The notes under the pieces: generated by a model
The model's input: only the letters and a program-made list of their open reading frames with translations
Told to the model about the DNA's origin: nothing
Databases searched by the model: none
Shown: positions 1-26,301 of the stretch, piece after piece
Layout of the letters: every line of letters starts with the position of its first letter
Numbering within the stretch: the first letter of the stretch is position 1
Position numbers and translations under genes: made by a program
Assembly: GCF_001644705.1 (NCBI RefSeq)
Contig: NZ_CP015137.1
Location: 1,530,001-1,562,000 of the forward strand
Source of the DNA: Dickeya solani IPO 2222
Lineage (GTDB): Bacteria; Pseudomonadota; Gammaproteobacteria; Enterobacterales; Enterobacteriaceae
Reading direction: 5' to 3'
Length of the DNA stretch: 32,000 nucleotides

Positions 1-507
1 GATGTCCATCGCCGTATAGGCGCGATAACATGCCGAGCTGTCCAGGCTTCTGGTGGTACACTGGGTCTGCAAAGCGCGGATATCGACCGGTAATGGTGTT
101 GCCGGAGTAGAAACTGACTCCCCGTCATCAGGCAACGCTGTTACTCGGGCCTGCCCCCGACAATGTGTGATTCTGCCGGCCCCTCCAACAGCAGAATCCT
201 CGCTGTAGATCTCAAAACTGATGTGGTCGTTATCTTCAGGACACAGATCGATAGACACGGTCAATCCCGCCGCCTGAACGCTCATCGGTCTCACCCAACT
301 GATATTTTTCAGCATTATCTGGCTGGCATGACCTGCAGCATCAGTGATTGCGGCTCTGGCTAATTCCAGATAGGCAACCCCCGGCAGAACGTTCTGTCCT
401 TTAACAACATGGTCAGCCAGAAAAAATTCGTGCCCGGTAAAAAAACTGCGGTAACGCTGGGTAGCGAAATCTGACGTGTTTTGCTGCACAAGCGGGTGTA
501 TTTCTCG
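1..507 (-). other. DH domain, N-terminal part (cut by window edge)
   Basis: HPLVQQNTS...FFLADHVVKGQNVLPGVAYLE matches the HxxxGxxxxP dehydratase motif; catalytic His codon at 411..409. Confidence 0.8.
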
Positions 508-2469
508 CAGCATCCGATCTCCACGAGAGTCCGGGGGCGATATCGCCGCGGTATCTGCCTTACTCCAGTAATGTTCAAGGTGGAAAGGATACCGAGGCAG
601 AGAGCGTTTACTAAAACCAGACGTACCGAAGATCTGGGTCAGTGGGAAATCAACGCCTCTGACCCAGAGTTCCATCAGAAAACCTTTGTCATTCTCCCAG
701 TCCAGCGTTTTCAGCAACTCAGACAGCCGGTTATGGCGGGTAAATATATCAAGCGCCTTATTTTCATCTTGCTGTCCGGTTTTCAGGTAGTAAGACTTCT
801 GCCCATTGGCAGCAATAAACTGGGTCAGCTTATCCTGTAAATTGTCGATGCTGGTGTAACGGAAGACCGCCCGCTGATCAAACTTGTTTCTTGCCGTCAG
901 ATAGAAATATTCCAATGCTCCGGGGTGAATGTCATGGGATTGCTGCAAAAAGGCCAGAATAGATTCAGCATAGTGAATCCACTGCCATTCATGCATCGTT
1001 GACAGCGCCAGAAAATACACATCACCCTGCGGCTCATCACCGACGGCTTTTCTATGCGCGTGGAGATCGGCGGAGCGGGGATATTCCTCCAGCAGCAAAT
1101 GGGCGTTAACACCGCCGGCGCCGAAGTTATTAATCGCGGCCCTGCGGGGAATTTCTTTGCCGTTATCATCCAGCAGAGGCGGCCACTCTTCTGTCATGTT
1201 ATCGATATAAAAGCGTGAGCCTTCCAGGCTGATTTTGTCGCTACAGGCTGAAAAATCTTTGATTCCTGGCTTTTTCCGCGTTTTAAATGCATGCAGTACG
1301 CGAACCAGCGAAACCATCCCGGAAGCCGAATTGGCGTGACCCATATTAGGTTTGAGCGTACTGACTTTACACGGGCTGCGCGTTGACGGTTCCACACTCG
1401 CGTTTAACTGAGCATCGGCACGCTTGAACCCTTTAATTTCTTCAGCATCGGCCAGAAGCGATGAGGCGCCGTGAGCTTCCACATAGGTAACGGTGTCCGT
1501 ATCAATACCGGCCTGACGGTATGCATTAACAATCACGCTCGCCTGTGATTCCGCCGACGGCATCGTCAGGCTGCCATAGCCTCCGGTATGGTTCACATCA
1601 GAGCCTAAAATCACCCCATGAATGTTGTCCCGATCGGCAATAGCCTGCGATAGGCGCTTGAGCAAAACCGTCGCCGTAGCCTCCGCAGGCAAGAAACCTT
1701 TAGCATCGGCCTGAAAAGGAGAACAGACTGTTGCTCCCCCGAGAATGCCTAAAGACTCCTGCCCCAAATACGATCCGGCCAGAGCATCGCCAAATAACAG
1801 ATTGGCGGCGCCAACCAGTGCATAATCGGCTTCCCCGCGCAGTAACGCTTCTTTCGCCTGATGCAGAGCAACACTGGCACCGGAACAGGCGGTATCGATA
1901 TAGAAGCTTTTACCGTTGAAACGAAAAGCATGGGAGAGGTAATTCGGCAGAGACCAGGACATCATGCCCAATATGGAATAACTCGTAAGCTCAGCTTTGG
2001 CGAGAAAAGGCGTATAAGCAGCACCTTCCGAGGCAATATAAACATCGACTTTCGCCTCTCGTAACTGTTGAGGCAGATAACAAGCATCCTCCAGCGTATG
2101 CCATGCGGACATCAAAAGCAGGCGGGTTCTGGGGTCCATATATTCGGCTTCCATCGGACCTATATTGAACAGGTCAGGATCGAATCCGGCGATATCATTC
2201 AGAAATGCCCCATACCTGTTTTGCATCTCTGGCCCCGGAAAATGATTCTCCGGCACGAGAGAAAACAGAGACTCCTGTTGATCAAGTTTATGGCAAAAAT
2301 CTTCGATAGAATCAGCACCTGGGAAAAAACCTCCCACGCCGATAATGGCAACGGCTTCTTTTTTATGCACCGAAAAAAGATCATCAGGCCAGGAAAGGTT
2401 GCTACCTGCATCGCTCTGTATATCCGTTAATACCGTGGCATCTTTACTGTCGTTATTCTGCTTCGTCAC
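1..2469 (-). CDS. trans-AT polyketide synthase, N-terminal part (KS - flanking linker - DH...); 3' end runs off the window
   Basis: Absent from the ORF track (no stop in window). Hand translation of the minus strand from GTG 2469..2467 to position 1 gives 823 codons without a stop. GGAGG lies 7 nt upstream, and an in-frame TAA at 2535..2533 limits the N-terminus. Motifs: AVAIIGVGG, IDTACSGAS, YVEAHGASS, LKPNMGHANSASG, FGAGGVNAHLLLEEY, LPRYPFHLEHYW, then HPLVQQN...FFLADHVVKGQNVLPG. Confidence 0.9.
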   Translation of the reverse strand, partial: MTKQNNDSKDATVLTDIQSDAGSNLSWPDDLFSVHKKEAVAIIGVGGFFPGADSIEDFCHKLDQQESLFSLVPENHFPGPEMQNRYGAFLNDIAGFDPDLFNIGPMEAEYMDPRTRLLLMSAWHTLEDACYLPQQLREAKVDVYIASEGAAYTPFLAKAELTSYSILGMMSWSLPNYLSHAFRFNGKSFYIDTACSGASVALHQAKEALLRGEADYALVGAANLLFGDALAGSYLGQESLGILGGATVCSPFQADAKGFLPAEATATVLLKRLSQAIADRDNIHGVILGSDVNHTGGYGSLTMPSAESQASVIVNAYRQAGIDTDTVTYVEAHGASSLLADAEEIKGFKRADAQLNASVEPSTRSPCKVSTLKPNMGHANSASGMVSLVRVLHAFKTRKKPGIKDFSACSDKISLEGSRFYIDNMTEEWPPLLDDNGKEIPRRAAINNFGAGGVNAHLLLEEYPRSADLHAHRKAVGDEPQGDVYFLALSTMHEWQWIHYAESILAFLQQSHDIHPGALEYFYLTARNKFDQRAVFRYTSIDNLQDKLTQFIAANGQKSYYLKTGQQDENKALDIFTRHNRLSELLKTLDWENDKGFLMELWVRGVDFPLTQIFGTSGFSKRSLPRYPFHLEHYWSKADTAAISPPDSRGDRMLREIHPLVQQNTSDFATQRYRSFFTGHEFFLADHVVKGQNVLPGVAYLELARAAITDAAGHASQIMLKNISWVRPMSVQAAGLTVSIDLCPEDNDHISFEIYSEDSAVGGAGRITHCRGQARVTALPDDGESVSTPATPLPVDIRALQTQCTTRSLDSSACYRAYTAMDI
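1084..2361 (-). other. KS domain (Cys/His/His present; HGTGT motif reads HGASS)
   Basis: Cys codon 1887..1885 in DTACSGAS. EAHGASS replaces EAHGTGT. NMGH is present, and the domain ends FGAGGVNAHLLLEEY. Confidence 0.9.
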
Positions 2470-2476
2470 GTTAAAG

Positions 2477-2481
2477 CCTCC
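2477..2481 (-). promoter_or_regulatory. Shine-Dalgarno (GGAGG) for the PKS starting at 2469
   Basis: The minus strand reads AATTGGAGGCTTTAACGTG, with 7-nt spacing to the GTG. Confidence 0.6.
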
Positions 2482-2508
2482 AATTGCCTTACCTGCCACC
2501 GTTCCCCG

Positions 2509-2545
2509 GTCGCCGCACGCCCACTTTTGCGTTTAGTGCGGCGAC
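2509..2545. repeat. GC-rich inverted repeat (10-bp stem, 17-nt loop) in the 128-nt intergenic gap
   Basis: gtcgccgcac (2509-2518) is the exact reverse complement of gtgcggcgac (2536-2545). No U/T tract follows on either strand. Confidence 0.6.
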
Positions 2546-2597
2546 GGGAAATCAAAAGAGGGCGGTGCATTCCTTTTTTCTTCAGACGAACTGCTTA

Positions 2598-2960
2598 CTA
2601 ACTCGCTGACAGTTGTAACTTGTCCCGCTTAAATACCTTGACGGTACCGGTCTGGGAATCCCTGACCGCCACCAGACTGCCGAAGTTAAACTTCTTCAAT
2701 ACAAAATGATCGATCAGTTCCGCTTCAGAAAGCTCTTCTCCCAGGCGGTATTCTTTTTTATCGAAATCCTGCCATGATTCATCGGCCCGATACCGAAACC
2801 AAAGAGGCTTGAGCCGGTTATATTGCACGTTACCGCCCGCCAGAAATTCCTGGAGCGTATCTGCCGATGCCTGATCATCATTCAGAATGTAGTACGCTTT
2901 GTCCGTCGGACAAATAATCATATTGAACAGGCCGGAATTTATCAGATATTCCTTCATCAT
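2598..2960 (-). CDS. 120-aa protein of unknown family; candidate accessory subunit of the adjacent cupin enzyme (OocQ-like by position)
   Basis: ORF-track ORF. ATG 2960..2958 overlaps the upstream TGA 2959..2957 (ATGA); a second ATG follows directly. AAGGGAG lies just upstream. I can recognise no catalytic motif in MMKEYLINSGLFNMIICPTDKAYYILNDD... Confidence 0.7.
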   Translation of the reverse strand: MMKEYLINSGLFNMIICPTDKAYYILNDDQASADTLQEFLAGGNVQYNRLKPLWFRYRADESWQDFDKKEYRLGEELSEAELIDHFVLKKFNFGSLVAVRDSQTGTVKVFKRDKLQLSAS

Positions 2961-4123
2961 TTATCTCCCTTACTCAGGACGTCACTGGTGGTGGTGTAGG
3001 CAGAAAAATAATTCTCATCTCCGATAGTTTTGGATTTTTTACCTAAACTGTTGAAAATATCGAATTTGAATTTGATAAAAGACGGATCTGAATTCAGGAT
3101 ATTGTCATATACCGGCATAAGTGTTGGAACATCTTTTCCTTTCGTCATCGTATCCAGATTCACTTCCGTCATCCGCATATTAGCCATGATCTGCAATGGC
3201 GTAGTATTGATAACAGCGTGAGGCCAGTATTTCGTGAAAAAGAGGACATCGCCCGGTTCCAGATCGACATAGAATTTCGGCGCATAGGCATAAAGCGGGT
3301 TATGAATTTTATGGAAGTTAATATCGAGGCGAGCATCCATCTTGGCTGACATACCGTTTGCACCATCAAGAAACGGGCGCAAAATATATCCCAAACGGGG
3401 ATCGACAAAGTACCAGCGTTTTACTCCGCTGATCATCAGCGCGCAGGAAATATCATTACCCTGATGCCAGTTAGTTCCCCAGGTGCGAAGATTACCGACA
3501 AATAGCTGGCTGAAACTATTCGCTGAGTGGCCATGAAAAAGATCGAGAATTTTTCCGGCGCCGACTTCATCGATCAAATCAGGATAGTCATTAAAAATTT
3601 CCGCAGAGTTATTAATGTAGTAACTCACCTTGGAATCTTTATCCAATTGAGAACGGAGTATTTTTTCCAGCTTGAGTTTTTTCAAACTGTTTCCCTTCTC
3701 ATCATAGCCGACCGCAATAATCTCCGTATCTTTATAGTGCTCAATTAGATAATCATGGGTCCATTCCTGAACGGCCTTCGTGTCATTAAGAAAACCTTTG
3801 GCAATGATCGGCGGGTTGCTGGCGTCATTGATCATCTTCTGAAAAGTCGTCCGATCCATATCTGAAAAATCGTAGGATTTCATTTTGATGAAAGTGTCGG
3901 CACAGTCCGTCGCGGCTAAATCAGGATACGCCGCTTGCAGATCCGCTAATTTTTTCTCAAATAAATCACGTTCGAAACTCTCCATGAAATCGGGAGATTT
4001 CAACACCAGTCGCATATGCATCATAAAGTGGAAATTTGCCTGTTCTTCCTGATCCAGAAAGAAAGAGGGCATCATTTCAAACACTTTCCGCTGTGTTTCG
4101 CTTTGAATATCATATTTTTCCAT
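2957..4123 (-). CDS. JmjC/cupin-fold Fe(II)/2-oxoglutarate-dependent enzyme with H-x-G...H metal site (predicted halogenase; OocP-like by context)
   Basis: The longest ORF starts at TTG 4168 (403 codons, overlaps the ACP gene by 20 nt, no SD). The first ATG is 4123..4121 (Met16 of the track protein), preceded by AAGGGA about 8 nt upstream, so I prefer the 388-aa model. Core: GTNWHQGND (His235 codon 3466..3464, Gly237 3460..3458), ISGVKRWYFVDP, GDVLFFTKYWPHAVINT (His317 3220..3218). Residues are numbered on the 403-aa track ORF. Confidence 0.85.
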   Translation of the reverse strand: MEKYDIQSETQRKVFEMMPSFFLDQEEQANFHFMMHMRLVLKSPDFMESFERDLFEKKLADLQAAYPDLAATDCADTFIKMKSYDFSDMDRTTFQKMINDASNPPIIAKGFLNDTKAVQEWTHDYLIEHYKDTEIIAVGYDEKGNSLKKLKLEKILRSQLDKDSKVSYYINNSAEIFNDYPDLIDEVGAGKILDLFHGHSANSFSQLFVGNLRTWGTNWHQGNDISCALMISGVKRWYFVDPRLGYILRPFLDGANGMSAKMDARLDINFHKIHNPLYAYAPKFYVDLEPGDVLFFTKYWPHAVINTTPLQIMANMRMTEVNLDTMTKGKDVPTLMPVYDNILNSDPSFIKFKFDIFNSLGKKSKTIGDENYFSAYTTTSDVLSKGDK

Positions 4124-4148
4124 AAATATATTCCCTTGGGGTTCAGGC

Positions 4149-4418
4149 TCAGAGAAGAACCATTTCAAGGCGATTGAAATGATGTTTTTTCAAATATTCA
4201 CTCAATCCCTGAAGCGAATTGACTTCCAGAAACACAACTGGAGTCAGCTTGATAGAGAAAAACTTGTTCAGATCCGCGCAATATTGATTAACCTCCATCG
4301 ACTCAAATCCATATTCATCAATGTCGCTTTCCCACTCTATATCCGCTGGTTCACATTTCAGTATTTTTGCTGCTAGCGCAACAAGATAACCTGACAAAGC
4401 TTCGTCTAACTCACCCAT
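4149..4418 (-). CDS. free-standing acyl carrier protein (PKS-type, 89 aa)
   Basis: ATG 4418..4416 is preceded by GAGGTG (4428..4423). The sequence IDEYGFESMEVNQYCADLNKFF...LTPVVFLEVNSLQGLSEYL has the PP-binding helix II pattern, with Ser40 (codon 4301..4299) in GFES instead of G(F/L)DS. Confidence 0.85.
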   Translation of the reverse strand: MGELDEALSGYLVALAAKILKCEPADIEWESDIDEYGFESMEVNQYCADLNKFFSIKLTPVVFLEVNSLQGLSEYLKKHHFNRLEMVLL

Positions 4419-4422
4419 TATT

Positions 4423-4428
4423 CACCTC
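4423..4428 (-). promoter_or_regulatory. Shine-Dalgarno (GAGGTG) for the free-standing ACP
   Basis: The minus strand reads AATAGAGGTGAATAATG. Confidence 0.55.
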
Positions 4429-4481
4429 TATTTCATCCAGAAATCACAACACTAACTCCGTGTTTACTCCACGACAGAGCG

Positions 4482-7400
4482 CTATTCCGCTCCTGTCAAT
4501 ACCGAACTATTTTCATCAGCTGCCTTGATATCGTCGAAACCTTCGTGCCAGCAAAAGACCTTCTGCAATGGATTGACCGGTAGATGGAGTTTTTGTATCA
4601 ATTCACCCCGTCCTTCAGCCAGGCGCAACGGCGTCCAATCCACAGCATGACCCGCCAGCCAATCCATCACAGCGTGCCGAATGTCATCACTGAAATGGGA
4701 CAGCCCCCCCGCGATACCCGGCGACACGTGACGGCTGTCATAAATGTCAGTTTGATTACCCGCACGGGATCGCCAGCGCTGCAAACACTCCTGCAACTGC
4801 GCAATACTTGCCGCGCTGACAGCCAACCGTACGGTCCGATGTTCCCTGCCCTGTTGCAGGGTATATTCGAGTTGCTCCAGATAGACCGATTCAGTCGTAG
4901 GTTGCTTTTCTGCCGCCGGCGCCCCCGTAATAAACTTGCCCGCGGCAATATCTGCCTGAACGCGCGGCAAAAAATCCAGGTAATCACTCACCAGCATGGT
5001 TAATCTGGCTTCATCCGCTTCAGAAAACAGGAAAATAAAAGACCGGTTTGTCTGCCTGGCGGAAGACTTGAATAACTCGGCTCGTCGATCAGCGTCATAT
5101 TCCTCAAGCAGCAGGTGTGCATTCACTCCCCCAATACTCATGGAGTGGATAGCGCCTCGCCGGGGTACATGGCCATGCTTCTCCCAGGCCCGATCTTCTC
5201 TGAGTAGCTCAAAGCCATCGGTCAGGGTGATCCCTTCGTTCAGTTCTCCCAGCCCCTCGATTTTTGCCAGACGACGGTGGTACATCGACAACACCATTTT
5301 CACCAATACCGGAAAAGTCGATGCCGTTTCGGCATGACCGGCCAGCGGCTTGAGAGAACCAATGGCAATCGAAGACGCGCGACTTTCTGCTGAGGTATTG
5401 TTCACCCGGTCAGGGCTCTCCTGTTCTTTGCTCTCCTGTTCTTTGCTCCCCTGTTCTTTGCTCTCCTGCAGATAGGGGCCATATACCGCCTGAATAGCAA
5501 CCAATTCAGAAGCATCCCCCAACTGGGAACCGTTGGCTTCCGGTTCGATATACGAGATGGTCGCTGGGTCAATGCCAGCCTCGGTGAAAGCGGCTACGAT
5601 GGCCGACTTCTGCCCTTCAATATTCGGGCTATACCACTTCAGAGGGGCTTTACCGCCATGACTGATGCCGACTCCTTTTACATTGGCATAGATGGCATCC
5701 CCTTGCGCCAACGCCTCCGCCTCTGCTTTCAGAATAATGGCTCCGACGACTTCACTTTTCACATAGCCATCAGAGTCATGGGCAAAGCTTTTCGTCACTG
5801 GATGAGAGCTATACAGGGCTTGATCATCCGTGCGGTTCTGCATGAAGGGAGAAAGCCCCAGTTCCACCGTGGCAACAATAGCCTGCTGGCAACGCCCTTC
5901 ATTAATGGCGCTCATGGCATGCCTAATCGCCACCAGAAAGCTGGCACATCCGGTTTCAACAATTTCACTCAGCCCGGATAGGTTCAGAATATTTGAGATG
6001 CGATTGGCATAAGCTGATATTTGTTCCGCCTGAAAACGCCACTGTGCCGCCTGTGCCGGATCCATCCTGGCAGGAATATCCTGATAGCCTGAATGACCAC
6101 GCGTCGCCACAAAGAGTCCGGTTCGTTTTTCACGGAACTGACTCAGGGTATATCCGGCATCCGTCACGGATTGCCAGATGACTTCGAGTAACTTTCGTAT
6201 CTGGGGATCCAGCTTTTGAGCTTCCTTGTGGGGGACTTTGAACAGCTTGTGATCGAAATACTCGACCCCGTCGAGATAACCGCCGATTCTACTGCTACCA
6301 CTATCTCGCTCATCCAGAGCCATCAGGTATCTGCGCTTGTCGCTTAAGGCAGAAAGCGTCGTGCGGCCCGCACTCAGGTTTTCCCAGAATCTGGAGATAT
6401 GCTCCGCCTGAGGGAAAATGCCTGCCATACCGATAATACTGACATTCTGCTTCTGCCCTTTTCCGGTTACCGCTATCTTCTCATCCGCCTGCTGCTTCTC
6501 ATCCACCCGCTTTTGGGTATCCGCTTGCTTTTTGGGATCCCATTGTTCTTCGGGCAAGGTTTGGCTGCCAAGCTTTGCCAACTGCTCGCCAAAATGACTG
6601 CGCAGGTATTGCTGAATTTCCCCTATGGTGCGGTATTCCATAAACAGCGAGCGAGACACATCCGGGAATTTTCCCCGGATTTTGTTTAACAGGTCGACGG
6701 ACACCACCGAATCCATCCCCAGCTCTTCCAGAGCACGATCCGGGCTAATGATCTCTTCGGATACTTTGAGTTGCCGGCTGATCAGCCGTATCAGATAAGT
6801 CTCCAGATTAAAGTGTGAGTTGACCCCCTCTGGTGCGATGTCTTCCGATAACGGCGAAGGTACATCAGCTGATTTTTCCGGCACCGGGTGAACGCCATTT
6901 TCATCGGATAAGCGTTCAGCGACACGGCTTTCCCCCTGACCTTCTGGAAGCCAGAACCGCTGACGCTCGAATGGATAGGTCGGCAAGCTGAGACGACGTG
7001 GGCGTTGCCCCCGGTACAGACCAGACCAGTCAAACGCCAGTCCCTGACACCACAGGTTCAGCAACCTGGCGTATTTCCCACGCTCAGCCCATTTTGCAAT
7101 GGCTTCACTCAACTCTTCATCCGCAGAAAACTGAGCCAGCAGGGCTTTATTACTGCCGCGTTGACCCCGGTATGTGTCATCGGGGTTCCCGGCGTCATGC
7201 AGAAAACCGTCAATCTTCGCTATCAGCTCATCGAATGACTTCACGATCCATCCCAGCCGCGCATCCATCGCATCACGCCCGACTTGCAGCGTATAGGCCA
7301 GATTAGTCAACGTCAGAGAAGCGTCTTGACGATGCTGTTCCAGATAGTGCCTGAGATTCTGGGCGACCTGCCGTAAACGCACATCGTCTTTGGCCGACAG

Positions 7401-10400
7401 CAAAATCACATAACGATCCTGCACTGCCTGTAAGGCCGGGCGGGTATCCCGATATTCCTCTATCACCACATGCGCATTGGCCCCACCAAAACCAAAAGAA
7501 CTGACACCGGCCCGCCGCGGCAATGCTTCTCCACGAGCGTTTTTCAACGCATGCCAGGGACGATTCTCACCAACGATATAAAAAGGCGTCCCCGTGAAAT
7601 CGATGTAGGGATTCGGTTCTTCACAATGCAGGCTCTTCACCAAGGTTTGATGCTTCATTTGCAGCAGAACTTTAATGACGCCAGCAATCCCTGCCGCCAT
7701 CTCCAGATGCCCGATATTGGTTTTCACCGATCCGATGCCGCACTCTGTGTTGGTATATTCCTCACCAGAATAATCGGCTTTCATGGTGTTAAATGCTGCT
7801 TTCAGGCTATTGATTTCAATCGGATCGCCGAGTTTCGTACCCGTACCGTGAGCCTCGATGTAACTGATACTCCTGGGATCAATGCCGGCATTCCGGTAAG
7901 CACTTTCCAGCAATGCAACCTGAGCCTTGGGATTCGGCGCCGTCAGAGAGCTGGCCCGACCGCCGTGATTCTGCGCACTGCCGCGGATCACTCCATAAAT
8001 GTGATCACCGTCAGCTTCTGCCGCCTGTAAGCGTTTCAGCAGCAACATCCCAACGCCTTCTCCCCGAACATAACCGTCAGCCTGGTTGGAGAAGGTTTTG
8101 CAACGACCGTCGGAGGCAAGCATGCCAGCTTTGCAGAAGCTGACAAACGTATCCGGCGTAACAAGCGTATTGATCCCACCGACAATCACCATATCGCAGC
8201 CTTCATGGCGCAAGGCCGATACCCCACGATGGATAGCAATCAAAGAGGATGAACACGCCGTTTCAATCGGCTCGCTCGGACCGTGGACATTGAGAAAATA
8301 ACTCATCCGGTTCGGCCCGACTGAAGGAACAATTCCCGTTGCGGTGAAGCCTTCTGCCGGCAGCTTCGCATCAACAATCAGGCCGGAATAACCGGTGTTC
8401 CCCGTTCCGATATAGATGCCCAGAGCGCTGCCGGACAGAGAACTGGCCGAATAACCCGCATCTTCAATGACTTTCCAGGCATGGGTCATCAACAAACGTT
8501 GTTGCGGATCCATTAATTCAGCTTCACGGGGGGATATGCCGAAAAACAGCGGATCGAACTCCGCCATATCCTGGATAAACCCTCCCCAGCGAATGCTGTC
8601 CTTGTTTTCAGCGCCATGCACATCTTGCAGGTAATCCCGCCAATTCCAGCGGATTGGCGGAACTTCACTGATACAGTCTTTCCCCTGAAGCAGATTTTCC
8701 CAGTAGGTCTCCAGATCCGGAGCCATCGGGAAGCTACCGCTCATTCCCACAATCGCAATCGCTTCCTGTTCATCACGCTTGCTGCCTGACGCTTGCGATG
8801 ATTGCCGCCCTGCCAGGTGTGAGTTATCCGCCGAATTCGCCGCCGGCACGCTGTTGCGCTCATTTCCCTTCACAGCCAGGACGTCATTCGCCGGTGATAT
8901 TTCATCTGTCGGTTTACAACCGCGCGTTGGCGATGGCGCCATCACTTTTTCTGCAAAGAGATGACTGAAGCGATCCTGATAGTTATCGGCCAGATAGTTG
9001 GTCAACCCGGCGACGGTCGGATATTCAAAAAACACGGTCGGGAGCAGATCCAACGTATATTGCCGGTTCAGCTTATTAGAAAAACCGGTCGTCAGAATTG
9101 AGTCAAAACCCAGCTCATTCAGCTCAATATCGATATCGATGTCTGCAACGTTCACTTGTAACAGCGTCGAGACTTCCTGCAACAGAAGCGACTGAATCGC
9201 CTCATGCAACGCCTGAATATCCAGTTCGGTATGACGGGCTCCGGTCTGTTCCTCGGCTGGCACAGGTTGCCAGAAGTCAGCCGCAGCCTGATCTGAATGC
9301 TCCGCCAGAGACGGATTGGCTGTCTCATGATGGGCGGACGTTTCATAGACGTCCTCTTTATGCGAAAAATCCGTAAATTTTGCAGCAAATACCGTCTGAT
9401 AGGTTTCCGTCAGATAGCGGCTTAATGCCGAAATGGTCGGATACTCAAAAAAGACGGTCGGCAACAGGTCAAGCTCGTACTGGCGATTCAACTTGTTGGC
9501 AAACCCAGTGGTCAGAATTGAGTCAAAGCCCAGCTCGGTCAATTCAAGCTCCAAATCGATCTCAGCCCTGTCCACATCAAGTAACGCGGATACATCACGG
9601 ATCAAAAGTTGCTGAACCGCGCCTTCCAGACCCTGTAAATCAATCCGTGTTGTTGACATATGACCAGCCCCTGGTGCCTGACCTGCCAATACCGGATCTT
9701 CGCTGCGCTTTTCATCTACTTTTACTGGCTGAAATGCCGTTATTGATGGACGTGTCGTTATTGATGGAATCGCCGTTATTGATGGAAGCGCGCTGAGCGT
9801 CTGGCGCAATTTTTCAAGGTCGCCGGCAATCACCAGCACTTGGTTTTCTTCCCGCGCAATCGCCCGATAGAAAGCCTGAAGACCGGCATCCGTCGGCATC
9901 GCTATCATGCCGGTGCTTTGGTACATCATGGTCTCGAATGCGTCATCCACTTTCATCCCGCCCTCTTTCCAGAGCGGCCAATTGATCGCAAGGGTTCTTC
10001 CCATTCGCGACTGAGCAACCACCCGTTGCTGACGATAGTGAGCATAGGCATCCATGAAACTATTAGCGGTAACATAATCAGCCTGTCCCGGATTACCTAA
10101 GCCAGCCGCCGTTGAAGAAAACAGAATAAAGAAATCCAGCGGATGCTGTGCTAAAGCCAGATCCAGATTCACTACCCCCTGAACTTTGGGGGCCAGCACC
10201 GCCTGAAAGTCCGCTGCAGACTTTTTCAGAATGTAGCTGTCACGCAGTACGCCGGCACAATGCAGAACACCGTTGATCGTTCCGTACTGAGCGGTCACGG
10301 TAGCGATCAGCGCCTCAACACCCGGCCGATCACAAACATCAAGCATTCGGTAATCGACCTGTGCTCCCAGCGCCTCCAACTGGCTGATCGACGTCTGAAT

Positions 10401-13400
10401 TCGGGGGGTCATAGCGGAGCGCCCGGTTAAAATCAACCTTGTATTTCGGGTCTGACGGGCGATTTCCGTGGCGAAAATAAGCCCCAGCCCACCGGCTCCG
10501 CCAGTAATGAGATAAACGCCCTGCTCCTTCCACGGCATGCGAGTGAGCCCGGACAGCGCTGATCCGTTGGGAACAGCCGCCCCGCCATTCATAGCGCACA
10601 CTTCCTGCCAGGACAGAACCTGACGCCCTTCCCGGTCATAGCGAATGTGAATATCTTCCGGCATCAGGCTACTTTCCCGCAGCTTCTCACCCACATCATC
10701 GGCACTGACCGCCACATCCAGCTCAATCAGTTGACCGATAAAGTTGGGGTTCTCTAAACGTGCGGTTTTTAACAATCCATTGAGAGCGGTTGATAGCCGG
10801 GTCGGGAAATCTCCGGCAACCACCAGTTGCAGTAACATCGCCTGTTTGGGCTTTCTGGCTAAAATCGTTTGCACCTGTGCAAACAGTGCCAACGCACTCT
10901 GATGAAAGTTCAGCGCGATATCGTCCGTGTCCTGCACCGGCAAAACGACGTCATCCGTCAGGCCAATATCTTTTGCGACAGAACGATCTCCGCAAAATAA
11001 GATTTGGCGACTCGCGTATGCATGCGGAACAGCGGTATTGACCCGCGCATTTTTGCGCAGCCACTGCGGCACAAGCAGTAAAGTACCGTTTCTCTGAGTC
11101 GTGACCTGCTCGGGCGTGCGGGCGCTAAAGCCATGCAGAGCAACGCAAAGCTGCCCCGCGTCGTCATATAACTTGACGGTAAGTTTCTGTACCTTTGCCT
11201 GAGGATTGGGCTCGGTTCCGTGGTCATAGGTCACACAAGCCCACATCGTAGAAGTGCATCGATGAAGAATATCCATCGACTCCATATCAAAAGGTAAACC
11301 CAGCCGATGCTCTCGGGACAACCCCAGCGTCGCCTGCAATGCCGAATCCATCATGCTGGGATGTAATACATAATCACCGAGCGTTTCACTGAGTGTTTCA
11401 GGCAAAGTTAACCGCGCCAGAACACGCCCCTTCGCCAGATACAGATTCTCAACGCCCTGATGCCCAGGGCCGTAGACGATCCCAAGCTTACGAAAAGCCT
11501 GGTAACACTCAGGCTTCTCAATGGTTCCTTCCTGATGTTCAGCCAGAGCAACAGACAGATCGAGTCTTTCCCTGTCATCTGGATGCCGGTCGATGACGAG
11601 CACTTTACCCTGACAATGAGTCTGCGTTTGACCATCCGGCATCAGAGAACAGATTTCAAACCGAATCACCTTAGCCGACTGCGGCAACAGTTTCACGGTT
11701 AGCGGGTAGGTTCCGGCTGCGGTTGCAGAGGCGTCCCGGTGTTCGGCAATGAATGGGCGAACCCACACAATCTGCGTCAATTGCAAATGAAATCCAGCGC
11801 CAACAACCTGCTCAACCGCGGCCCGAGCCATTTCCAGATAGGCCACGCCAGGTAACAGTTTTTGTCCCATCACCAGATGGTCAGCCAGGAAAAATTCGCG
11901 ACCATCAAACCAGGAGGTAAAACAGAGCGCGGTAATATCAGAAGTATTGCGATGCACCAGAGGATGCAAACGATATGGACTTATTTTTACAGGGGATTCC
12001 GTCTTTCCTTGTCCATCGCTCCCACTTTCTGACGTCTTCACCTTCAGCCAGAAACGATCCCGTGCAAACGGATAGGTCGGCAAACCGATTCGGCGGGGCT
12101 TTACTGCCGTCGGGTACAGTGGCTTCCAGTCAACCTGACCGCCCTTCACCCAAACATCGAGCAGTTTGTTGTAGTTGCCTGTTTGCAGCCATGTTCCGAC
12201 CATCGTTTGCCACGTATCTTCATCCGCCAGCATCGACAGCGATTCTTTACCGGCTTTAACATTCCCGCGATAAACCCCTTCTGGTATTTCTGCATCAGAG
12301 AGATAAGCGGCCAATGTTTGTTTCAATGTCTGCACGGAACGGGTTACAAAGGCCAGACGTTCATCCATCGCTTCACGCCCCACTTGCAGGGTATAGGCGA
12401 TTTCAGTCAGGCTGGGCTGCTGGGCAGCACACTCGGCAGAATCCAGAAAGGCCGCCAGGCCTTGCACCACCGCGTCTAAACGCCCGGTCTTTTTGGCCGA
12501 CAACACAATTGCCACCGGCACGGCAGAAGAAGACGAAGCCTCCACGACTTCGGCTGTCGGCGCATACTCCTCAAGAACAATATGCGCATTAGCCCCACCG
12601 ATACCGAAGCTACTGACACCGGCCCTTCTCGGCATTGGCTGACCGGCAGCATCTTCTATTGCAGGCCACGCTTGTGTCTCCTGGACCAGATAGAACGGGC
12701 TATCGGCTAAATCCAGATAAGGGTTTGCCGTCTTAAGATGCACATTGCCCGGAATTTTCCGGTGGCGGAACATCAGCAAAATTTTCAGGACACCGGAAAT
12801 GCCGGCGGCCGCTTCCAGATGCCCGATATTAGTTTTCACCGACCCTAATCCACAATACGCCTTTCGGGTCATCGCTTTATTCTGTTCCCGGTACAGGGTT
12901 TCAAACGCCTTCTTCAACCCATTGATTTCAATCGGGTCTCCCAGTTTAGTTCCCGTACCGTGGGTTTCGATATAGCCCACCATCTCTGGATCAATGCCGC
13001 TACGGCGATAGGCCTGAACCAGCAGTTCTTGCTGCGCAACCGGATTCGGCGCCGTCGGAGAGGTGGCTTTGCCGCCATGATTCTCGGCACTACCACGGAT
13101 CAGACCGTGAATGCGATCGCCATCGGCTTTCGCCTGAGTGAGGGGTTTGAGCATAATGACGCCGACACCTTCACCACGACCATAGCCATCGGCACTGATA
13201 TCAAACGTTTTACAACGACCGTCTTCACTAAGAATACCGGCCTCCCCGGCGGTAATGGTGATCCCCGGATTGACGATAACGTTGACACCACCGACAATCG
13301 CCACGTCACAACTACCGGAGCGAATCGCCTCTATCGCCCGGTGGATGGCGACCAGTGAACTGGAGCATGCGGTATCGATAGGCTCGCTGGGGCCGTGCAG

Positions 13401-16400
13401 ATTCAATATATAAGAAACACGGTTTGCCAGCGCAAAATGAGAAAGCCAGGGTGGATCGCCGATACCGAATTTATCGTGGGAATACTTCAGCCAGGCGTCT
13501 TTATACTCAGAGGTTGACACCCCGACAAAAACCCCGGTATTGCTGCCCGATAAATCACTGGCGCAATAGCCGGCATCCTCAATCGTGGCCCAGACAGTTT
13601 CCAGAAAAACCCTGAATTGCGGATCCAGCGATTGGGCTTCACGGGGAGAGATCCCGAAAAACAGCGGGTCGAAACAGTCGACATCCTGCATGAATCCCCC
13701 ATAATTCACTTTGGTTTTTCCGGGGGTTTCATGTGGATCGCCATAATATTCCTGCCAGTTCCAGCGATCTGCCGGAACCTGGCCGATCAAATCAGAATTC
13801 GCTTCCAGCTGTTGCCAGAACTCATCCAGATTGCGGGACTGAGGAAATCGGCCACTCATACCGATAATCGCTATCGCTTCTGGTGCTTGTGATATTTTTG
13901 GTGTTAATGGCGTGCCCACCTCCGGCGCAGTCGCTTTTGAAATGCCTGAAGCGGCCACGTCAGCAACGGCGGCTTCTGATGGCGTAACCTCTGGTGTTGG
14001 CTGTGACTGGATTTGCGGTGCAGCCCGCCAGGCAAATGCTTTTCTTCCTTCCTCAGTATTCGCGGTTCTGGTGACCATAATCTGAGGTTGCCCGCTAGCC
14101 GCTCCCTTTGCTGAGATAGCCCCAGCGCTGACAGATGTCGCAGCAGCGTTATCAGCAAAAGCCTCGGGGTAAGTGTTAGCCAGATAGTTCCCCATCGCCC
14201 TCAGGGTCGAATGCTCAAAGAAAACCGTCGGCATCAGTGCTAATCCATAGGTTTTATTGAGACGACTGGCGAACTCGGTGAAATCGATAGAATTGAAGCC
14301 ATATTTAGACAGCTCCATATCCAGCTCTATCTTTTTTTCATCAAGCTTTTGCAGTTGCGCGACCATACTGACAAGCAATGCACAAACCTGCCCGACCCGA
14401 ACCGTGCCGTTGACCTCTGTTGTCAAACCTGCCGCATCTTTTATATCCGATTGATGCACGGGCGCCGGATGGGTGGACGTTGGCCCCTCAGAGAGTCTGG
14501 CCTGAATTTTTTCTGCCTCACCATAGATGACGGCAAGCTGAGATTCCTGACTTTGCAGCCCCAGAATCAATGCCCGAATTCCCGCATCAGTGGGCATCGG
14601 AATCAAACCGGTCTGCTGTCTGAGCAGTTCAGCATCGGGTGCGGAAATACCCATACCGCCATCACGCCATAGCGGCCAGTTTAACGCCAGGGTTTTTCCC
14701 CGGCGCAGACCATTGGCGACCTGCTGGTTACGCCAGAGGGCAAATCCATCCATAAATCCATTGGCGCAGGCATAATCGGCCTGGCCGGCATTACCAAACG
14801 CACTGCTCAATGAAGAAAACAACACCATAAAATCCAGGTTGCAATCCTGGGTCGCGTTGTCCAGAGCCAAGGTTCCTGCCACTTTCGGCGCCAGAACGTC
14901 GAGCAGTTCCGCTTCAGTTTTATTGGCAATGAAAGCATCACGGATGACGCCTGCACTATGGATGATGCCATTCAGTTGACCTTCATCTTGCAGAATCTGC
15001 TGTACCAGATTGCGGGTTTGCGCCGGATCGGCCACATCCCCCTGCAGGTAAGTCACCTGAATCCCCTGATGCCGCAAATCCAAAAGGCGTTGCTCACTGC
15101 GTTCATTCAGGGCAGAGCGACCGCTGAGTACCAACCGAGCCTGATATTGAGTCCCCAGTTCACGGGCAATCTGATAACCAATCCCCCCCAAACCGCCGGT
15201 TATCCAGATGACACTGCCAGAAGAAACCGGCAGTTCATCAGTCATGTCTGCCAGAGTGCTCCGGCGCCACGCCTTCACCCTCCGGTTTCCGGTTTCATCG
15301 TAACGAATCTCTGTGGCGTCATTTGCGCCATGCATTTCAGACTGTAACTGTGTTAGCAGCGGTGGGATGGCTTCCGGTGAAGCGTGGTATCGGATCACTT
15401 TGCCATTGAAGCCGGATTGTTCTTGCCGGGCTGTTTTGAACAGTCCCGAACTGGCTGATAACCACGATTCATTAACCGGTTCTGATGCCAGTATAAATAC
15501 GGCTTGCCGCTGAGATTGCTCCCGGCAAGCAAGCGTCCTTTCTTTTATTTGGGCAAATAACTGTTGCAGGCAATACGTAAATTGTTGCGGTTCGTGGTCG
15601 TGACCCACAGGCAGGTTCACCACCTGGCAATCGGGCCAGCTATTTTGCAACGCGGTTTGCAGCGCCGCGTTCTCATCGGCCAGAATAAAACAAGGCGGCA
15701 GTGCATCGGGATCACCGTCATGCACCTGAGCAGACCCACTATGCTGGATGACCCACTGAGGCCGGGCAAAAACCAGCGACTCGGCTTGCGAAACCTGAGC
15801 ACTTATCATGCTCAGTCCTTTTATCTCAACCAAAATATGCCCGTGATGATCGGTAAACCAGATATCACAACGCACGACCCGATGTTCTGAACCCGCATCA
15901 GACTGCGTTTGGCGAATATAAGCCAAGACGCTTGCTGGTAACGGCTGGTAGATCCTCAGCGTATCCATGCTAAACGGCATCAGCGGATGAGTACCTTGCC
16001 GCTCACCGCCGACGGCCAGCATAATGCCGGCCAAAACGGCCCCATTCATCAGTGCCGGATGCAACACCGGCTCCTCACCCACACCGACAATATCCTGGTG
16101 AACTTCCAGCGTCACCAGCGCTTCATTATTCCCCTGCTGATACCGGGTAATCCCAAGCAATCTGGGCCCGATGGCGGTGCCGAAAAATTCAGCACAGGCA
16201 TGATGGGAGCGACGCTGCCGGCAGCGATGCTCGATTTCTGTAAGCGGCAAAGGCTGACGTTCTGTTCCACCGACAAGCCCAGTCATCACGCGCCCCTGCG
16301 CATGAACCTGTCCCTGTCTACTGATAACACAGTGATAGCCTTGTGCGTCTCGATTCAGGGCCAGATCGATATCCGTACCCTGTTCTCCCACCATCACGGG

Positions 16401-19400
16401 CTGGTGCCAGATAACCTCCTTGAGACCCACGACGACTTCGGAATCCCCTGTTGAAACGTGTGATACAGCCAGTTCTCTCATCCATTCCAGAGACAGCATT
16501 CCGGGAAGCAACCCACCGTGATCCTGCAAAAAATACTCTGTGCCGCTTAACGCTTTGCCCTTTATGCTAACGGTCATCTCTGCGCTGACCGTCGTATCTA
16601 CAGACGTCACCGTTCCCGGGGAAACAGATTGCTCAGAGGTGTGAGATACCGGCAAAACCCGCGTCGAGAAGCCACGCATACTCACACAGATACGACCATG
16701 ATCATCGCAGAGGTCGATATCCATTTTCCGTACTTGCTCGTTTGCCGAGTTTTCTGTTGATACCAGCCGTAGCCAGACCCAAAGACGAGCATCAACCTCT
16801 GCGAATACATCCAATTGCTCCAGAGCAAAAGGAACATAGGCGGCGCCAGACGGTAGGTCTGAGTGATTCAGCCCCAGACTGGTTTGCAAGGCCGCATCCA
16901 TCAGGCTCGGATGCAGGCCGAACGCGGAGGATGTCACCGTATCCGGCACAGCAATCCGAGCCAGTACCTGACGCTCTCCGGTCAGTAGCTGTTCAATGCC
17001 CTGAAATGTCTCGCCATAACTCAGCCCCATATCGCGAAACTTCTGATAACAGTGCGCCGCCTCATATTCAGGGCCAGTCATCTGTTTCTTCAGTTGGTGC
17101 AGATCCAGCGTGTTCCTTTCTAAGGCGTTATTTCCCGTGATGGCGTCATTCGGACGGGGATCAATGATTCCCTGACCATGAATCGTGCGCTGCTGAATGT
17201 CGCTTTCCGAATAAATCTGGTAGTCAATGAGACCGCTTTCCTGTTCGTAGAGACCCAGATAGATTGTGGTTGTCTGTTGCGTTGCGATCACCGGCTGAAG
17301 CCAGAGTACCTGCTTCAAACTGAAATGCAGCAGTTGCGATTTGGAAAAGAGGGGAGAGGCAGCATAGGTATAAGCCGCCCGAGCCATTTCCAGATAGCTG
17401 ACGCCCGGCAGCACCTTCTGACCATGAATCTGGTGATCCGCGAGGAAAAACTCCTCGCCGCTGAACTCAGAGCGAAAGCGAAGTTCAGCCAGCGTTGAAG
17501 CATTTTCCTTCAACAGCGGATGTAATAGCCCCGGTCTGGCCGCGACAATAGGGCCTGGCGATGAAGATAACGCGCGGGTCTCTAGCCAGTGATGCTCTCT
17601 GGCAAAGGGGTAAGTCGGTAAGACGACACATCTGGATACGTCCGGAAACAGCGCCGCGCCGTCCAGTTCGTATCCTTGACAATAATAGTCTGCCAGTGCG
17701 GACAGGATTTCCTGATATTCCTGCCCCTCACTATGTTGTGGCTGGCGTAATAGTTGTGGCTGGCCTGATAAAACGTCGACCTGCTGGCGAATGATCTTTT
17801 GTCCGGCGAAGCCCAACGGTACTTTACCGCGAAACAGATTGGGACGTTGCGCATGCTCTGCCTGCTGCAAACTGATGATGACGCTTTCCCGATCTTCAAC
17901 CACCACGGCCAGACGGTATTGAAAATGACTCCGCCCCCGCAGCAATGTATAACCGATCGCTGCCAGTCCCTGACCGCTGGTTTGCGGTTTTTGCAAATGC
18001 AAAATCAGATCGTCGACCTTACGGTATAACGCCTCCTCGGTCTTGGCCGACAAACAGAGAAGATAATGGCTGCGCTTTGGCTCTGGGGACGAAACCGGCT
18101 GAGGGTATTCCTGCATGATAAGATGAGCGTTGGTTCCGCTCATGCCGAAAGCACTCACGGCCCCCATTCTCTGCTTACCCTGCTGTACCGGCCAGGCCCT
18201 GGCCGTTTTATTCACATAAAAAGGACTCTCTGCCCAGGTAATGTAGTCATTTTCCTGCTGACAGTGCAGACTTGCGGGAATGACTTGCTGATTCATCGAC
18301 TGAAGCAGACTCACGGCGCTAAGGAGCCCCGAAGCGGCAAACGTATGGCCGAAATTCGTTTTTGTCGACGTCAGGGCGCAAAAAGCCTGTTTATCGGTGT
18401 ACGCTTTAAACGCATCATTCAACGCATTAATCTCGACCGGGTCGCCAAGCCGGGTACCCGTTCCGTGCGTCACGATATAGTCAATCTGCGCAGGATCGAT
18501 GTGAGCGCGTTTATACACGGTTTTGAGCAAGTCGGTCTGCGCCACACCGTTCGGCGCAGTGATCCCGTTAGTTTTGCCGTCATAATTGATACCGCTGGCC
18601 CGAATCAAACCGTGGATCGGATCACCATCGGCTTCGGCCTGCGACAAGCGTTTTAGCACCAGCACCACCACCGCTTCGCCAGGCACCATGCCGTTAGCAC
18701 GCCGATCAAAGGTGTAGCAGATCCCATCCTCAGAAGTCATGCCTGAACGCTTCATGATATCGAAGCCTTCCGTCGAGAGTTGCAAACTCACGCCGGCTGC
18801 CAGCGCGGTGTCGCATTCTCGGTTACGCAGACTGGCGCATGCCAGATGCGCAGCGACTAAACCGGATGAGCAGGCCGTATTGATCGCCAGCACCGGTCCG
18901 TGCAGATCGAGAAAATAGGCCAGCCGTGAAGCCAGAATGCCATTGTGATTGGCAGTAATTTCAACGTGTTCAGCACCAGAGAAACGTCCGTATGTTCCCT
19001 CTTCCACACCGACAAAAGTGCCGATGTTATGCTGCCGCAACTGTTGCGCGCCGTAACCGGCATGTTCCAGCGCTTTCCATGCTTCCTGTAAGAGCTGGCG
19101 CTGGCCGGGATCCATGTTTTGAGCTTCTCGGGGCGAGATTTCAAAAAACAGCGGGTCAAATTCAGCCGCACCGGGTATGACACCACACCACAAGCCCTGT
19201 TCTGCCGAAGAACCACGATCATCTAACGTAGCACTACCATCACGGTAAGACTCGTCCCGACTACGCAGGTATTCTGCACTCACGCGGCTTACAGACGATT
19301 TTCCCTCTGCCAGATACTGCCACATTTCATCAACATCACGGGCATCGGGAAAACGGCCGCTCATACCGATAATCGCGATCGGCTCTTCTGCTTCGAAAGG

Positions 19401-25175: not shown

Positions 25176-26301
25176 AAGCAACCTTCTCCCGCTTGAGATT
25201 GAATTCAACTAATTGCTGTAAATAACCAAAAGCATTGCTGACTGCGGTGTAGTCCATGCCAAAATCCTGAAGGAATGCAATTTCATTGACCCCAGATGCG
25301 ACGGCCAAATCAATCTGTTTCTGGCATTCCTCGGGCGGGCCAAATATTCCTCCGGTTTTGAAATAACGGGCATAGGCATAATCGAGAATTTGATCAATCT
25401 GACTATTATCGAAATGCTTATCTCTGGCTTTCATCTGCGGAATAATGCTACTGCGGATATACGCCTTAAACGGTTCACGAACTACCTGCTGTACCCACTC
25501 CATATCCGGGTGGACGAAGGTGTGCATCATCAGTGTGACCCGACCGCTACGAGGTTCCAGCCCTGCTTCGGCGCGGGCAGCGCGGTAGATGTCCACGTAT
25601 TTTCTGAATTCGTGGAGATCGATCCCATGCAGCATGCCGAATACGTTATAACCATGCAGGCCCGCATGCCGAAAGCCCTGTTCAGAAATGCTGAAATACC
25701 AGATATTTATTTCTTGCTGAATAGGACGCGGATAAACCACCGTCGGGAAAATCTCCCCGCCTGGACCGGGAAAATCCACCGTTTCCCCCCGCCATAGTTT
25801 CTGTATCACCGGAATACGCTGATCACGTATTTTTGCACGATCCTCATAGGTGTCCGGTGACAGGATAAAGTCCGCTTTGTTCCAGCCACTCCCCACCCCC
25901 AAGTCAACCCGACCATCAGAGAGGATATCCACCATCGCCCAGTTTTCGACGATTTCTACTGGATGGTGCAGCGTGTTGGTCACGGCGGCTGAACGCAGAC
26001 GCACGTTTTTGGTTAGTGGTGCAAAGTAAGCCGCAGCAATGCTGTTATTGGCGTAAATAGAGCCAAACTCATAAAAATGGCGTTCAGGAAAACAAACCGA
26101 TTCAAAACCAGCCTGATCGGCAAACTCGACCAGCTCACGGGCAAAACGATATTTATCCCGGTCTGAGACATCTTTACGGACATCCGAAAAAAACAGATAG
26201 CTAAAAGAAATATCTGCCCCAGGCCCACTGATCTTAACCTCAGAATCTACGGTGCGATTTCCAGAGAAAAAATCTTCCAGTTTTTGATTTACGGTAGTCA
26301 T
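25168..26301 (-). CDS. luciferase-like (LLM family) flavin-dependent monooxygenase, PKS-associated (OocM-like by context)
   Basis: 377 aa. ATG 26301..26299 overlaps the upstream TGA (ATGA); AGGAGA lies 9 nt upstream. LLM hallmarks: FSYLFFSD..., FADQAGFESVCFPERHF, LSDGRVDLGVGSGW. Stop TGA 25170..25168. Confidence 0.9.
   Translation of the reverse strand: MTTVNQKLEDFFSGNRTVDSEVKISGPGADISFSYLFFSDVRKDVSDRDKYRFARELVEFADQAGFESVCFPERHFYEFGSIYANNSIAAAYFAPLTKNVRLRSAAVTNTLHHPVEIVENWAMVDILSDGRVDLGVGSGWNKADFILSPDTYEDRAKIRDQRIPVIQKLWRGETVDFPGPGGEIFPTVVYPRPIQQEINIWYFSISEQGFRHAGLHGYNVFGMLHGIDLHEFRKYVDIYRAARAEAGLEPRSGRVTLMMHTFVHPDMEWVQQVVREPFKAYIRSSIIPQMKARDKHFDNSQIDQILDYAYARYFKTGGIFGPPEECQKQIDLAVASGVNEIAFLQDFGMDYTAVSNAFGYLQQLVEFNLKREKVAYE
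25182..25190 (-). promoter_or_regulatory. Shine-Dalgarno (GGGAGAAGG) for the megasynthase ATG at 25175
   Basis: The minus strand reads GCGGGAGAAGGTTGCTTATGAGTGA, with 6-nt spacing. It lies inside the 3' end of the monooxygenase gene. Confidence 0.6.

Follow-up and report, generated by a model that had tools for sequence, protein, structure and literature searches.

How does a polyketide assembly line set a chlorine atom on the backbone of its product when one megasynthase stops at a ketosynthase (KS), the next acyl carrier protein (ACP) is a separate gene and two further genes stand before the next synthase? This question is raised by a stretch of 32,000 nucleotides from Dickeya solani IPO 2222 (contig NZ_CP015137.1, positions 1,530,001 to 1,562,000; hereafter the window). 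We found that the window is the antifungal oocydin (ooc, haterumalide) trans-acyltransferase (trans-AT) polyketide synthase (PKS) cluster of D. solani and that it holds the known halogenation module of this pathway. Every gene of the module lies on the minus strand, as do all long open reading frames (ORFs) of the window, and the gene order is OocL (partial), OocM, OocN, OocO, OocP, OocQ and the start of OocR. Among the loci used for comparison, which carry L numbers here, the Logan contig L007 was 100% identical to the window across 12,957 nt, and CP051459.1 and JABAOP010000001.1, listed as D. solani IFB0417 and IFB0487 in a comparative genomics study (PMC7325237), were 99.98% and 99.95% identical. 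This near-identity, together with the matches of OocP and OocQ to PDB entry 8A82, identifies the window as the D. solani ooc cluster. The module itself is an ordinary orthologue of the Serratia plymuthica system: the oocydin module of S. plymuthica 4Rx13/A153 (PDB 8A82; Matilla 2015, Mabesoone 2024) has the same genes, order and flanking domain architecture, and OocP, OocQ, OocO and the non-elongating KS (KS0) are ~92%, ~82%, ~88% and ~73% identical, respectively, to those of Serratia marcescens MSU97 (L009). The differences from Serratia are those of host and ordinary orthologue divergence, and no functional one is apparent. We hold with high confidence both the identity of the module and the overall flow of the chain, from KS0 to the free ACP, to the OocPQ pair and on to the KS and dehydratase (DH) of OocR.

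The megasynthase OocN is encoded by an ORF of 6908 aa (4482..25208, minus strand) with a KS domain at its C-terminal end. This last domain, KS10, occupies 4485..6449 together with its flanking subdomain (Pfam ketoacyl-synt, 3.4e-53). Its active-site Cys is retained (Cys6421, codon 5948..5946, TGT, within ETGCASF), as is the second histidine (H6625, codon 5336..5334, within AGHAETAS), and the HGTGT histidine is changed to Glu (E6557, codon 5540..5538, within YIEPEANGS). Loss of the HGTGT decarboxylation His with the Cys kept is the pattern of a trans-AT KS0, and OocN is predicted to terminate in a non-elongating KS. The protein ends directly after the flanking subdomain (…LPVNPLQKVFCWHEG…AE*; stop codon 4484..4482), without an ACP. 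Upstream of KS10 lies a minimal KS-ACP module, in which KS9 (7623..8765, minus strand; Pfam ketoacyl-synt 3.9e-89) is, by its motifs ETACSSS, EAHGTGT and NIGH, a canonical elongating KS, ACP9 (6603..6797, minus strand; PP-binding 1.5e-12) carries an LGMDSV motif, and the domain search found neither a ketoreductase (KR) nor a DH between the two.

Since KS10 lacks the decarboxylation His, it should be unable to extend the chain. A defective catalytic triad in the last KS of OocN was also noted for the Serratia orthologue, and a non-extending transfer to OocO was proposed (Matilla 2015, PMC4552970). That KS10 condenses despite the His-to-Glu change, and the module elongates, could be argued from the retained Cys and second His. 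However, carbon counting and the nuclear magnetic resonance (NMR) data of compound 2, described below, permit no more than one elongation by KS9 to KS11 together, of which KS9 has the full set of canonical motifs; the E.EANGS motif, moreover, is shared by every orthologue, as would be expected if a non-decarboxylating function were under selection. We consider a condensing KS10 very improbable.

The ACP missing from OocN is encoded next to it. The gap between OocN and OocO (4419..4481, minus strand) is 63 nt long and contains a Shine-Dalgarno (SD)-like GAGGTG (4423..4428) and five in-frame stops, which exclude a read-through fusion. OocO (4149..4418, minus strand; 89 aa, ATG at 4418, PP-binding E 5.2e-13) has its phosphopantetheine-attachment residue at Ser40 (codon 4301..4299), within DEYGFESME / DIDEYGFESMEVN. 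The related loci likewise all encode the OocO-type ACP as an ORF of its own; the family reads DIDE[YF]GFxS…QP.LFLEV and is only ~30% identical to in-cis ACPs. The first-pass annotation, a reading made from the letters of the window and a list of its ORFs, had described a terminal KS with the Cys kept and Glu for the decarboxylation His, a minimal KS-ACP upstream of it without KR or DH, and a separate 89-aa ACP with its own SD 63 nt downstream of the OocN stop, and all of this was borne out. It had also called the GFES attachment motif unusual. The motif is present in OocO, but the residue ahead of the serine varies among orthologues (GFES, GFTS, GFGS and GFDS); GFES is therefore not diagnostic, and we rejected it as a functional signature.

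OocP (2957..4123, minus strand; 388 aa) is, judging from its domain and best structural match (Cupin_8 3.3e-15; 8A82_A, E 1.5e-247), a Cupin_8/JmjC-like Fe(II)/α-ketoglutarate halogenase. Its iron ligands are provided by H220-x-G222 (3458..3466; H220-Q-G222) and H302 (3218..3220), with Gly replacing the carboxylate ligand, and the W-H-x-G-N and W-P-H motifs were invariant across 22 aligned OocP homologues. The start is the ATG at 4123, which gives 388 aa and matches residue 1 of 8A82_A, not the TTG at 4168 that overlaps OocO. Cupin_8 was the only Pfam family found and 8A82 the sole PDB hit, which does not place OocP in the SyrB2/CurA-Hal (PhyH/TauD-like) family, although its mode of action is like that of these halogenases, which depend on a carrier protein. 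OocQ (2598..2957, minus strand; 119 aa) matches 8A82_B, deposited as 'OocQ' (E 2.9e-63). Pfam and NCBIfam gave no family for OocQ, and NCBIfam had no model for OocO or OocP either. The OocQ gene directly follows OocP, and its start overlaps the OocP stop (ATGATGA, 2955..2960). Similarly, the stop of a KR overlaps the start of the free ACP in L012, L013 and L017. Such overlaps suggest translational coupling of the module parts. The GC contents of OocO, OocP and OocQ (2598..4418) are 0.40, 0.42 and 0.47, versus ~0.53 in the flanking PKS. A recent horizontal insertion was considered for this dip and rejected, because the dip is shared by relatives of very different GC, both low and high; the GC at third codon positions in these relatives is near that of the flanking PKS, which indicates that the dip there is mostly a matter of amino-acid composition.

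Genetic data are available for the Serratia orthologues, where the name "halogenation module" refers to the OocP halogenase with OocQ. In-frame deletion of oocO or oocP led to loss of activity, and deletion of oocQ left very low activity (Matilla 2015, PMC4552970). In S. plymuthica, chlorinated intermediates/congener were seen in ΔoocR and were absent in ΔoocQR, truncated assembly lines yield the chlorinated compounds 1-5, and a published figure legend puts the halogenated intermediate on OocO. The first-pass annotation had proposed a split non-elongating module made of a KS0 and a discrete ACP, halogenation on this free ACP by a cupin and its partner, and a modification module spread over four polypeptides. 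These main inferences match the published, experimentally backed S. plymuthica model; the first agrees with the transfer proposed by Matilla 2015 and with the inactive ΔoocO and ΔoocP strains (PMC4552970), and the second with the presence of chlorinated products in ΔoocR versus their absence in ΔoocQR.

Two other roles of OocO have to be weighed against these data. Matilla 2015 (PMC4552970) raised the alternative of a post-assembly-line carrier, onto which the finished chain would be off-loaded from OocS for tailoring, and ΔoocO alone cannot separate the two roles. However, the chlorinated intermediates already build up in ΔoocR, where no OocS step has yet been reached, chlorinated compounds also come from truncated lines, and all 10 related loci with an upstream PKS have the free ACP between KS0 and OocP. 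We give this alternative almost no credence. Similarly, OocO might serve starter or β-branching chemistry as a donor ACP and have nothing to do with the halogenase; the cluster has an HCS β-branching cassette, and OocL has tandem ACPs. This is extremely unlikely, in that OocO keeps strict synteny with OocP and OocQ in clusters from different phyla that otherwise differ in architecture, its sequence is family-specific and distant from in-cis ACPs as given above, and it is OocO that bears the halogenated intermediate in the published legend. A carrier on which OocPQ act remains our preferred role for OocO.

Where the chain goes after OocO can be read from the N-terminus of OocR (1..2469, minus strand), which contains KS11 (1267..2358) and a DH (1..498, partial at the window edge) with an intact HxxxGxxxxP motif. 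A KS-DH start of this PKS (2469..1) had been read in the first pass, and the domain search agrees. The domains of OocN are KS0-ACP / KS-KR-ACP / KS-DH-(second DH-like)-KR-ACP / KS-DH-KR-ACP-ACP / KS-ACP / KS0, and those of OocR, taken from the near-identical locus L006, are KS-DH-ACP-KS-KR-MT-ACP-ACP-KS-DH…, where MT is a methyltransferase. For the mapping of modules onto product we used what we take to be the oocydin A skeleton; this assumption is corroborated by C19, which is the OocK-derived carboxylate, and by the NMR shifts listed for compound 2. KS7 then corresponds to the C9 thioester, with the tetrahydrofuran at C11, KS8 to C7 and KS9 to C5. By colinearity, the chain made by KS9 has C7 as its β-keto carbon and C8, which bears the chlorine in the product, as its γ-CH2. 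Since module 12 contains the MT and C4 is methylated, KS12 must make the C3 thioester, and it follows that KS9, KS10 and KS11 jointly add one C2 unit only. The carbons of compound 2 agree with a single C2 unit being added between KS8 and KS12.

Compound 2, a shunt product (C23H29ClO8, solved by NMR), came from a strain with OocR cut after its second KS. In its table, lactone C1 is followed by CH2 C2, ketone C3 (202.6 ppm), CH2 C4, =CH C5 (121.0 ppm) and =C(Cl) C6 (139.6 ppm), the last two forming a chlorinated double bond two carbons off the OocR-ACP thioester carbon. This structure, from an OocR truncated at that point, shows that the vinyl chloride is complete at the KS0-DH-ACP stage and without the KR of module 12. 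Also, the reported m/z values of compounds 3, 4 and 5 (511.1729, 530.2151 and 512.2046) fit C25H31ClO9, C25H33ClO9 and C25H31ClO8, the formulae derived from the model. The NMR data of compound 2 and the label KS0-DH-ACP, which published Serratia work gives to the first OocR module, agree with the first-pass suggestion that the downstream DH helps to form a vinyl chloride.

The path that we propose is as follows. KS9-ACP would add one malonyl unit, giving a C5 thioester whose β-carbon (C7) is a ketone and whose γ-carbon (C8) is a methylene. KS10, with its Cys and with Glu for His, would act as a transacylase or gatekeeper that does not extend the chain and moves it to holo-OocO. On OocO, the OocP/OocQ heterodimer would chlorinate the γ-carbon C8, with OocQ as a small stabilising partner; this reaction is reportedly called γ-chlorination. 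A KR encoded outside the module would reduce the C7 keto group, the non-elongating KS11 would hand the chain to the OocR ACP, the OocR DH would remove water to give the C7H=C8Cl vinyl chloride, and KS12-KR-MT would resume elongation. Two parts of this path are ones that we infer, namely the order of chlorination and ketoreduction and the KR responsible for C7. As for the order, we lean modestly towards chlorination first.

Several observations weigh against this path and have to be set beside it. One concerns KS11, which keeps Cys/His/His and has a normal overall score but reads EAHGASS in place of EAHGTGT. The sequence itself therefore does not mark KS11 as non-elongating, a character that the first-pass annotation had overlooked. 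An elongating KS11 was considered on the strength of the retained Cys/His/His and rejected: the MT belongs to module 12, oocydin carries its methyl at C4, and the formulae of compounds 2-5 and the label KS0-DH-ACP given by the authors of the Serratia work also speak against it. KS11 is non-elongating, by colinearity and by the published product structures. The second observation is that no KR was found in KS9-ACP, KS0/OocO or KS11-DH-ACP, yet C7 needs reduction; it ends as =CH, and water can be removed only once the β-keto group has been reduced. A third comes from six related loci in which an apparently active KR is fused to KS0 directly before the free ACP: L001/L011 (8485..9471), L003 (8963..9943), L012 (2762..3742), L013 (8696..9649), L015 (8651..9637) and L017 (8739..9662). 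All 6 fused KRs have the NADPH-binding, LDD-region and Lys motifs, and the Ser/Tyr/Asn pattern was matched in 3 of them. Given these fused KRs, the substrate of OocPQ could be a β-hydroxyacyl rather than a β-ketoacyl chain. The first-pass prediction of an unreduced β-ketoacyl chain on OocO follows from colinearity; the C7H=C8Cl group, however, needs a ketoreduction that modules 9-11 do not provide, and in the six relatives a KR is present.

These data lead to an alternative with the same module and another timing, in which the KR acts first and OocPQ chlorinate β-hydroxyacyl-OocO; the KR would perhaps be borrowed across modules, from KR8 of OocN or from OocS. Besides the six non-enterobacterial relatives, in which the KR with its NADPH and catalytic motifs precedes the free ACP, it is favored by the finished vinyl chloride of a strain in which the single KR of OocR is missing. 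On the other side, colinearity predicts a β-keto group, and the module has no KR in the window, in three other Enterobacterales loci and in the metagenome locus L014, which has none within 10 kb upstream either; sequence does not tell whether KR or halogenase acts first on a shared ACP. We regard this timing as a realistic possibility, though short of an even chance. Reduction of C7 "backwards" by KR12 of OocR module 12 was also considered and was rejected, as compound 2 has its vinyl chloride complete in a strain truncated before KR12. Chlorination of the β-ketoacyl chain before reduction by an outside KR is the order that we keep.

We examined how widely the cassette occurs. OocP homologues formed 44 clusters with 50-92% identity. 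Among species-representative genomes only six OocP loci were found: Dickeya oryzae (98%), two Serratia (91-92%), a Verrucomicrobia metagenome-assembled genome (MAG OFTM167; 60%) and two Lysobacterales MAGs (52-55%). The cassette as a whole was found in Dickeya, Serratia, the Verrucomicrobia MAG, the two Lysobacterales MAGs and five distinct metagenome loci. A comparison with other clusters for KS0-terminated proteins followed by a discrete ACP, suggested in the first pass, showed this pattern in 10 related loci with an upstream PKS, which keep the order ACP-KS0[E.EANGS]-(KR) / free ACP / OocP / OocQ / KS apart from a variant in L003. In all 10 other loci with a PKS upstream of the halogenase genes, the KS0 carries Y[IV]E.EANGS, and the KS0 Cys motif was seen in 6 of 7 loci scanned. 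The KS after OocQ reads EAHGASS in 5 of 7 scanned loci and also in L016; in L012 it is EAHGSCS, and the scan of L013 showed no motif of this kind. Across loci, KS0s share 40-47% and KS11-type KSs 48-64% identity, compared with ~30% to other KSs of the same PKS, which indicates that KS0 and KS11 are dedicated clades and not decayed copies.

The form without a KR, marked by YIEPEANGS and GFES, occurs in the window, D. oryzae, the two Serratia and the metagenomic lineage L014, which shares both motifs. The KS0-KR form occurs in the Verrucomicrobia MAG, the two Lysobacterales MAGs and three metagenome loci. With low confidence, we suggest that these are two architectural subfamilies of OocPQ modules, that oocydin borrows its KR from another module or protein or else the substrates differ (β-keto versus β-hydroxy), and that the ~40 OocP clusters outside Enterobacterales, among them one locus with two halogenase paralogues and loci that lack a DH after the halogenase, would yield chlorinated or chlorine-activated polyketides not known so far. 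In L015 (11567..16153), L017 (11538..16895) and L013 (11786..), an ACP comes next after the KS that follows OocQ, without a DH; instead of ending in a vinyl chloride, the chain there may stay a chlorohydrin, or the chloride may serve as a leaving group. L003/L004 (10001..13130; metagenome JGI 3300004161) has the order PKS(KS0-KR) / OocP / OocQ / free ACP / second OocP / PKS; the second OocP paralogue has 387 aa and a WHQGN motif, and there is no second OocQ. Double chlorination, or two halogenases with one shared partner, could account for this locus. In L016 (10001..21185), OocP-OocQ lie at the cluster edge with unrelated genes upstream; next to them come a free-standing methyltransferase and a PKS with a KS11-type KS (EAHGASS) and a DH at its start. 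No PKS, KS0 or free ACP was found upstream of OocP in L016, and its KS0 and ACP must be located elsewhere or absent.

Several known systems resemble the module in part. The halogenases of CurA and JamE (curacin, jamaicamide) also are Fe(II)/α-ketoglutarate enzymes that act on the γ-carbon of an ACP-tethered intermediate during assembly, and in jamaicamide dehydration and decarboxylation after chlorination leave a vinyl chloride. They differ in being in-cis domains of another fold subfamily, in their HMG β-branch substrate and in requiring ECH1/ECH2; unlike the OocP module, they have no partner protein, dedicated KS0 or free ACP. The type-B dehydrating bimodule (KS-KR-ACP-KS0-DH-ACP) resembles the KS0-KR relatives, with reduction on one ACP and dehydration on the next after a non-elongating KS. 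In the window, by comparison, the first KS is non-elongating, the ACP is a separate protein, the halogenase pair is inserted and the KR that precedes KS0-DH-ACP in the bimodule is absent, no KR having been found between KS9 and the OocR ACP.

Domain maps recovered the ooc architecture around the module (OocL, OocM, OocN and OocR). OocL, partial at the window edge, reads …KS-ACP-ACP-KS-KR-ACP. OocM, a luciferase-like monooxygenase (25168..26301, minus strand), is followed by the first module of OocN, a KS0-ACP (region 23421..26301); this KS0 (23937..25067, minus strand) has ATCAG and EAQGMG, with His changed to Gln, and its ACP is at 23421..23609. Together, OocM and this KS0-ACP make up the already described α-hydroxylation module, the other module of the cluster that only modifies the chain. 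It and the mupirocin α-hydroxylation bimodule follow the same logic as the halogenation module, in which a non-elongating KS0 and an ACP are served by a trans oxidative enzyme encoded adjacent; the OocM module differs in its flavin monooxygenase, its in-cis ACP, Gln for the KS0 His and another KS clade. A second DH-like domain after the DH in the KS-DH-x-KR-ACP module of OocN (15759..16553, minus strand) is probably a pyran-synthase-type cyclase that forms the oocydin tetrahydrofuran ring. Compared with window positions 1..12962, CP051459.1 and JABAOP010000001.1 (L005/L006) have just 3-6 single-base indels in 13 kb, which split OocN and OocR into many called genes. The frames are intact in the window and in L007, and the indels in the two public D. 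solani records are therefore probably assembly errors.

PKS reactions that chlorinate the backbone on-line to give a vinyl chloride are rare and of use in synthesis, and the oocydin halogenation module is already in use as an isotope-tagging engineering platform; the question of the missing KR bears on the portability of the module for such engineering. The module that the first pass recovered from raw sequence matches an experimentally validated four-protein system. A KS0 such as KS11 (EAHGASS), which a missing-His rule does not see, could mislead automated module calling, and the E.EANGS signature of KS0, known from OocP contexts, could serve to mine halogenation modules. What is new here, besides this signature, is that the cassette is widespread outside Enterobacterales and occurs in a form without a KR and a KS0-KR form.

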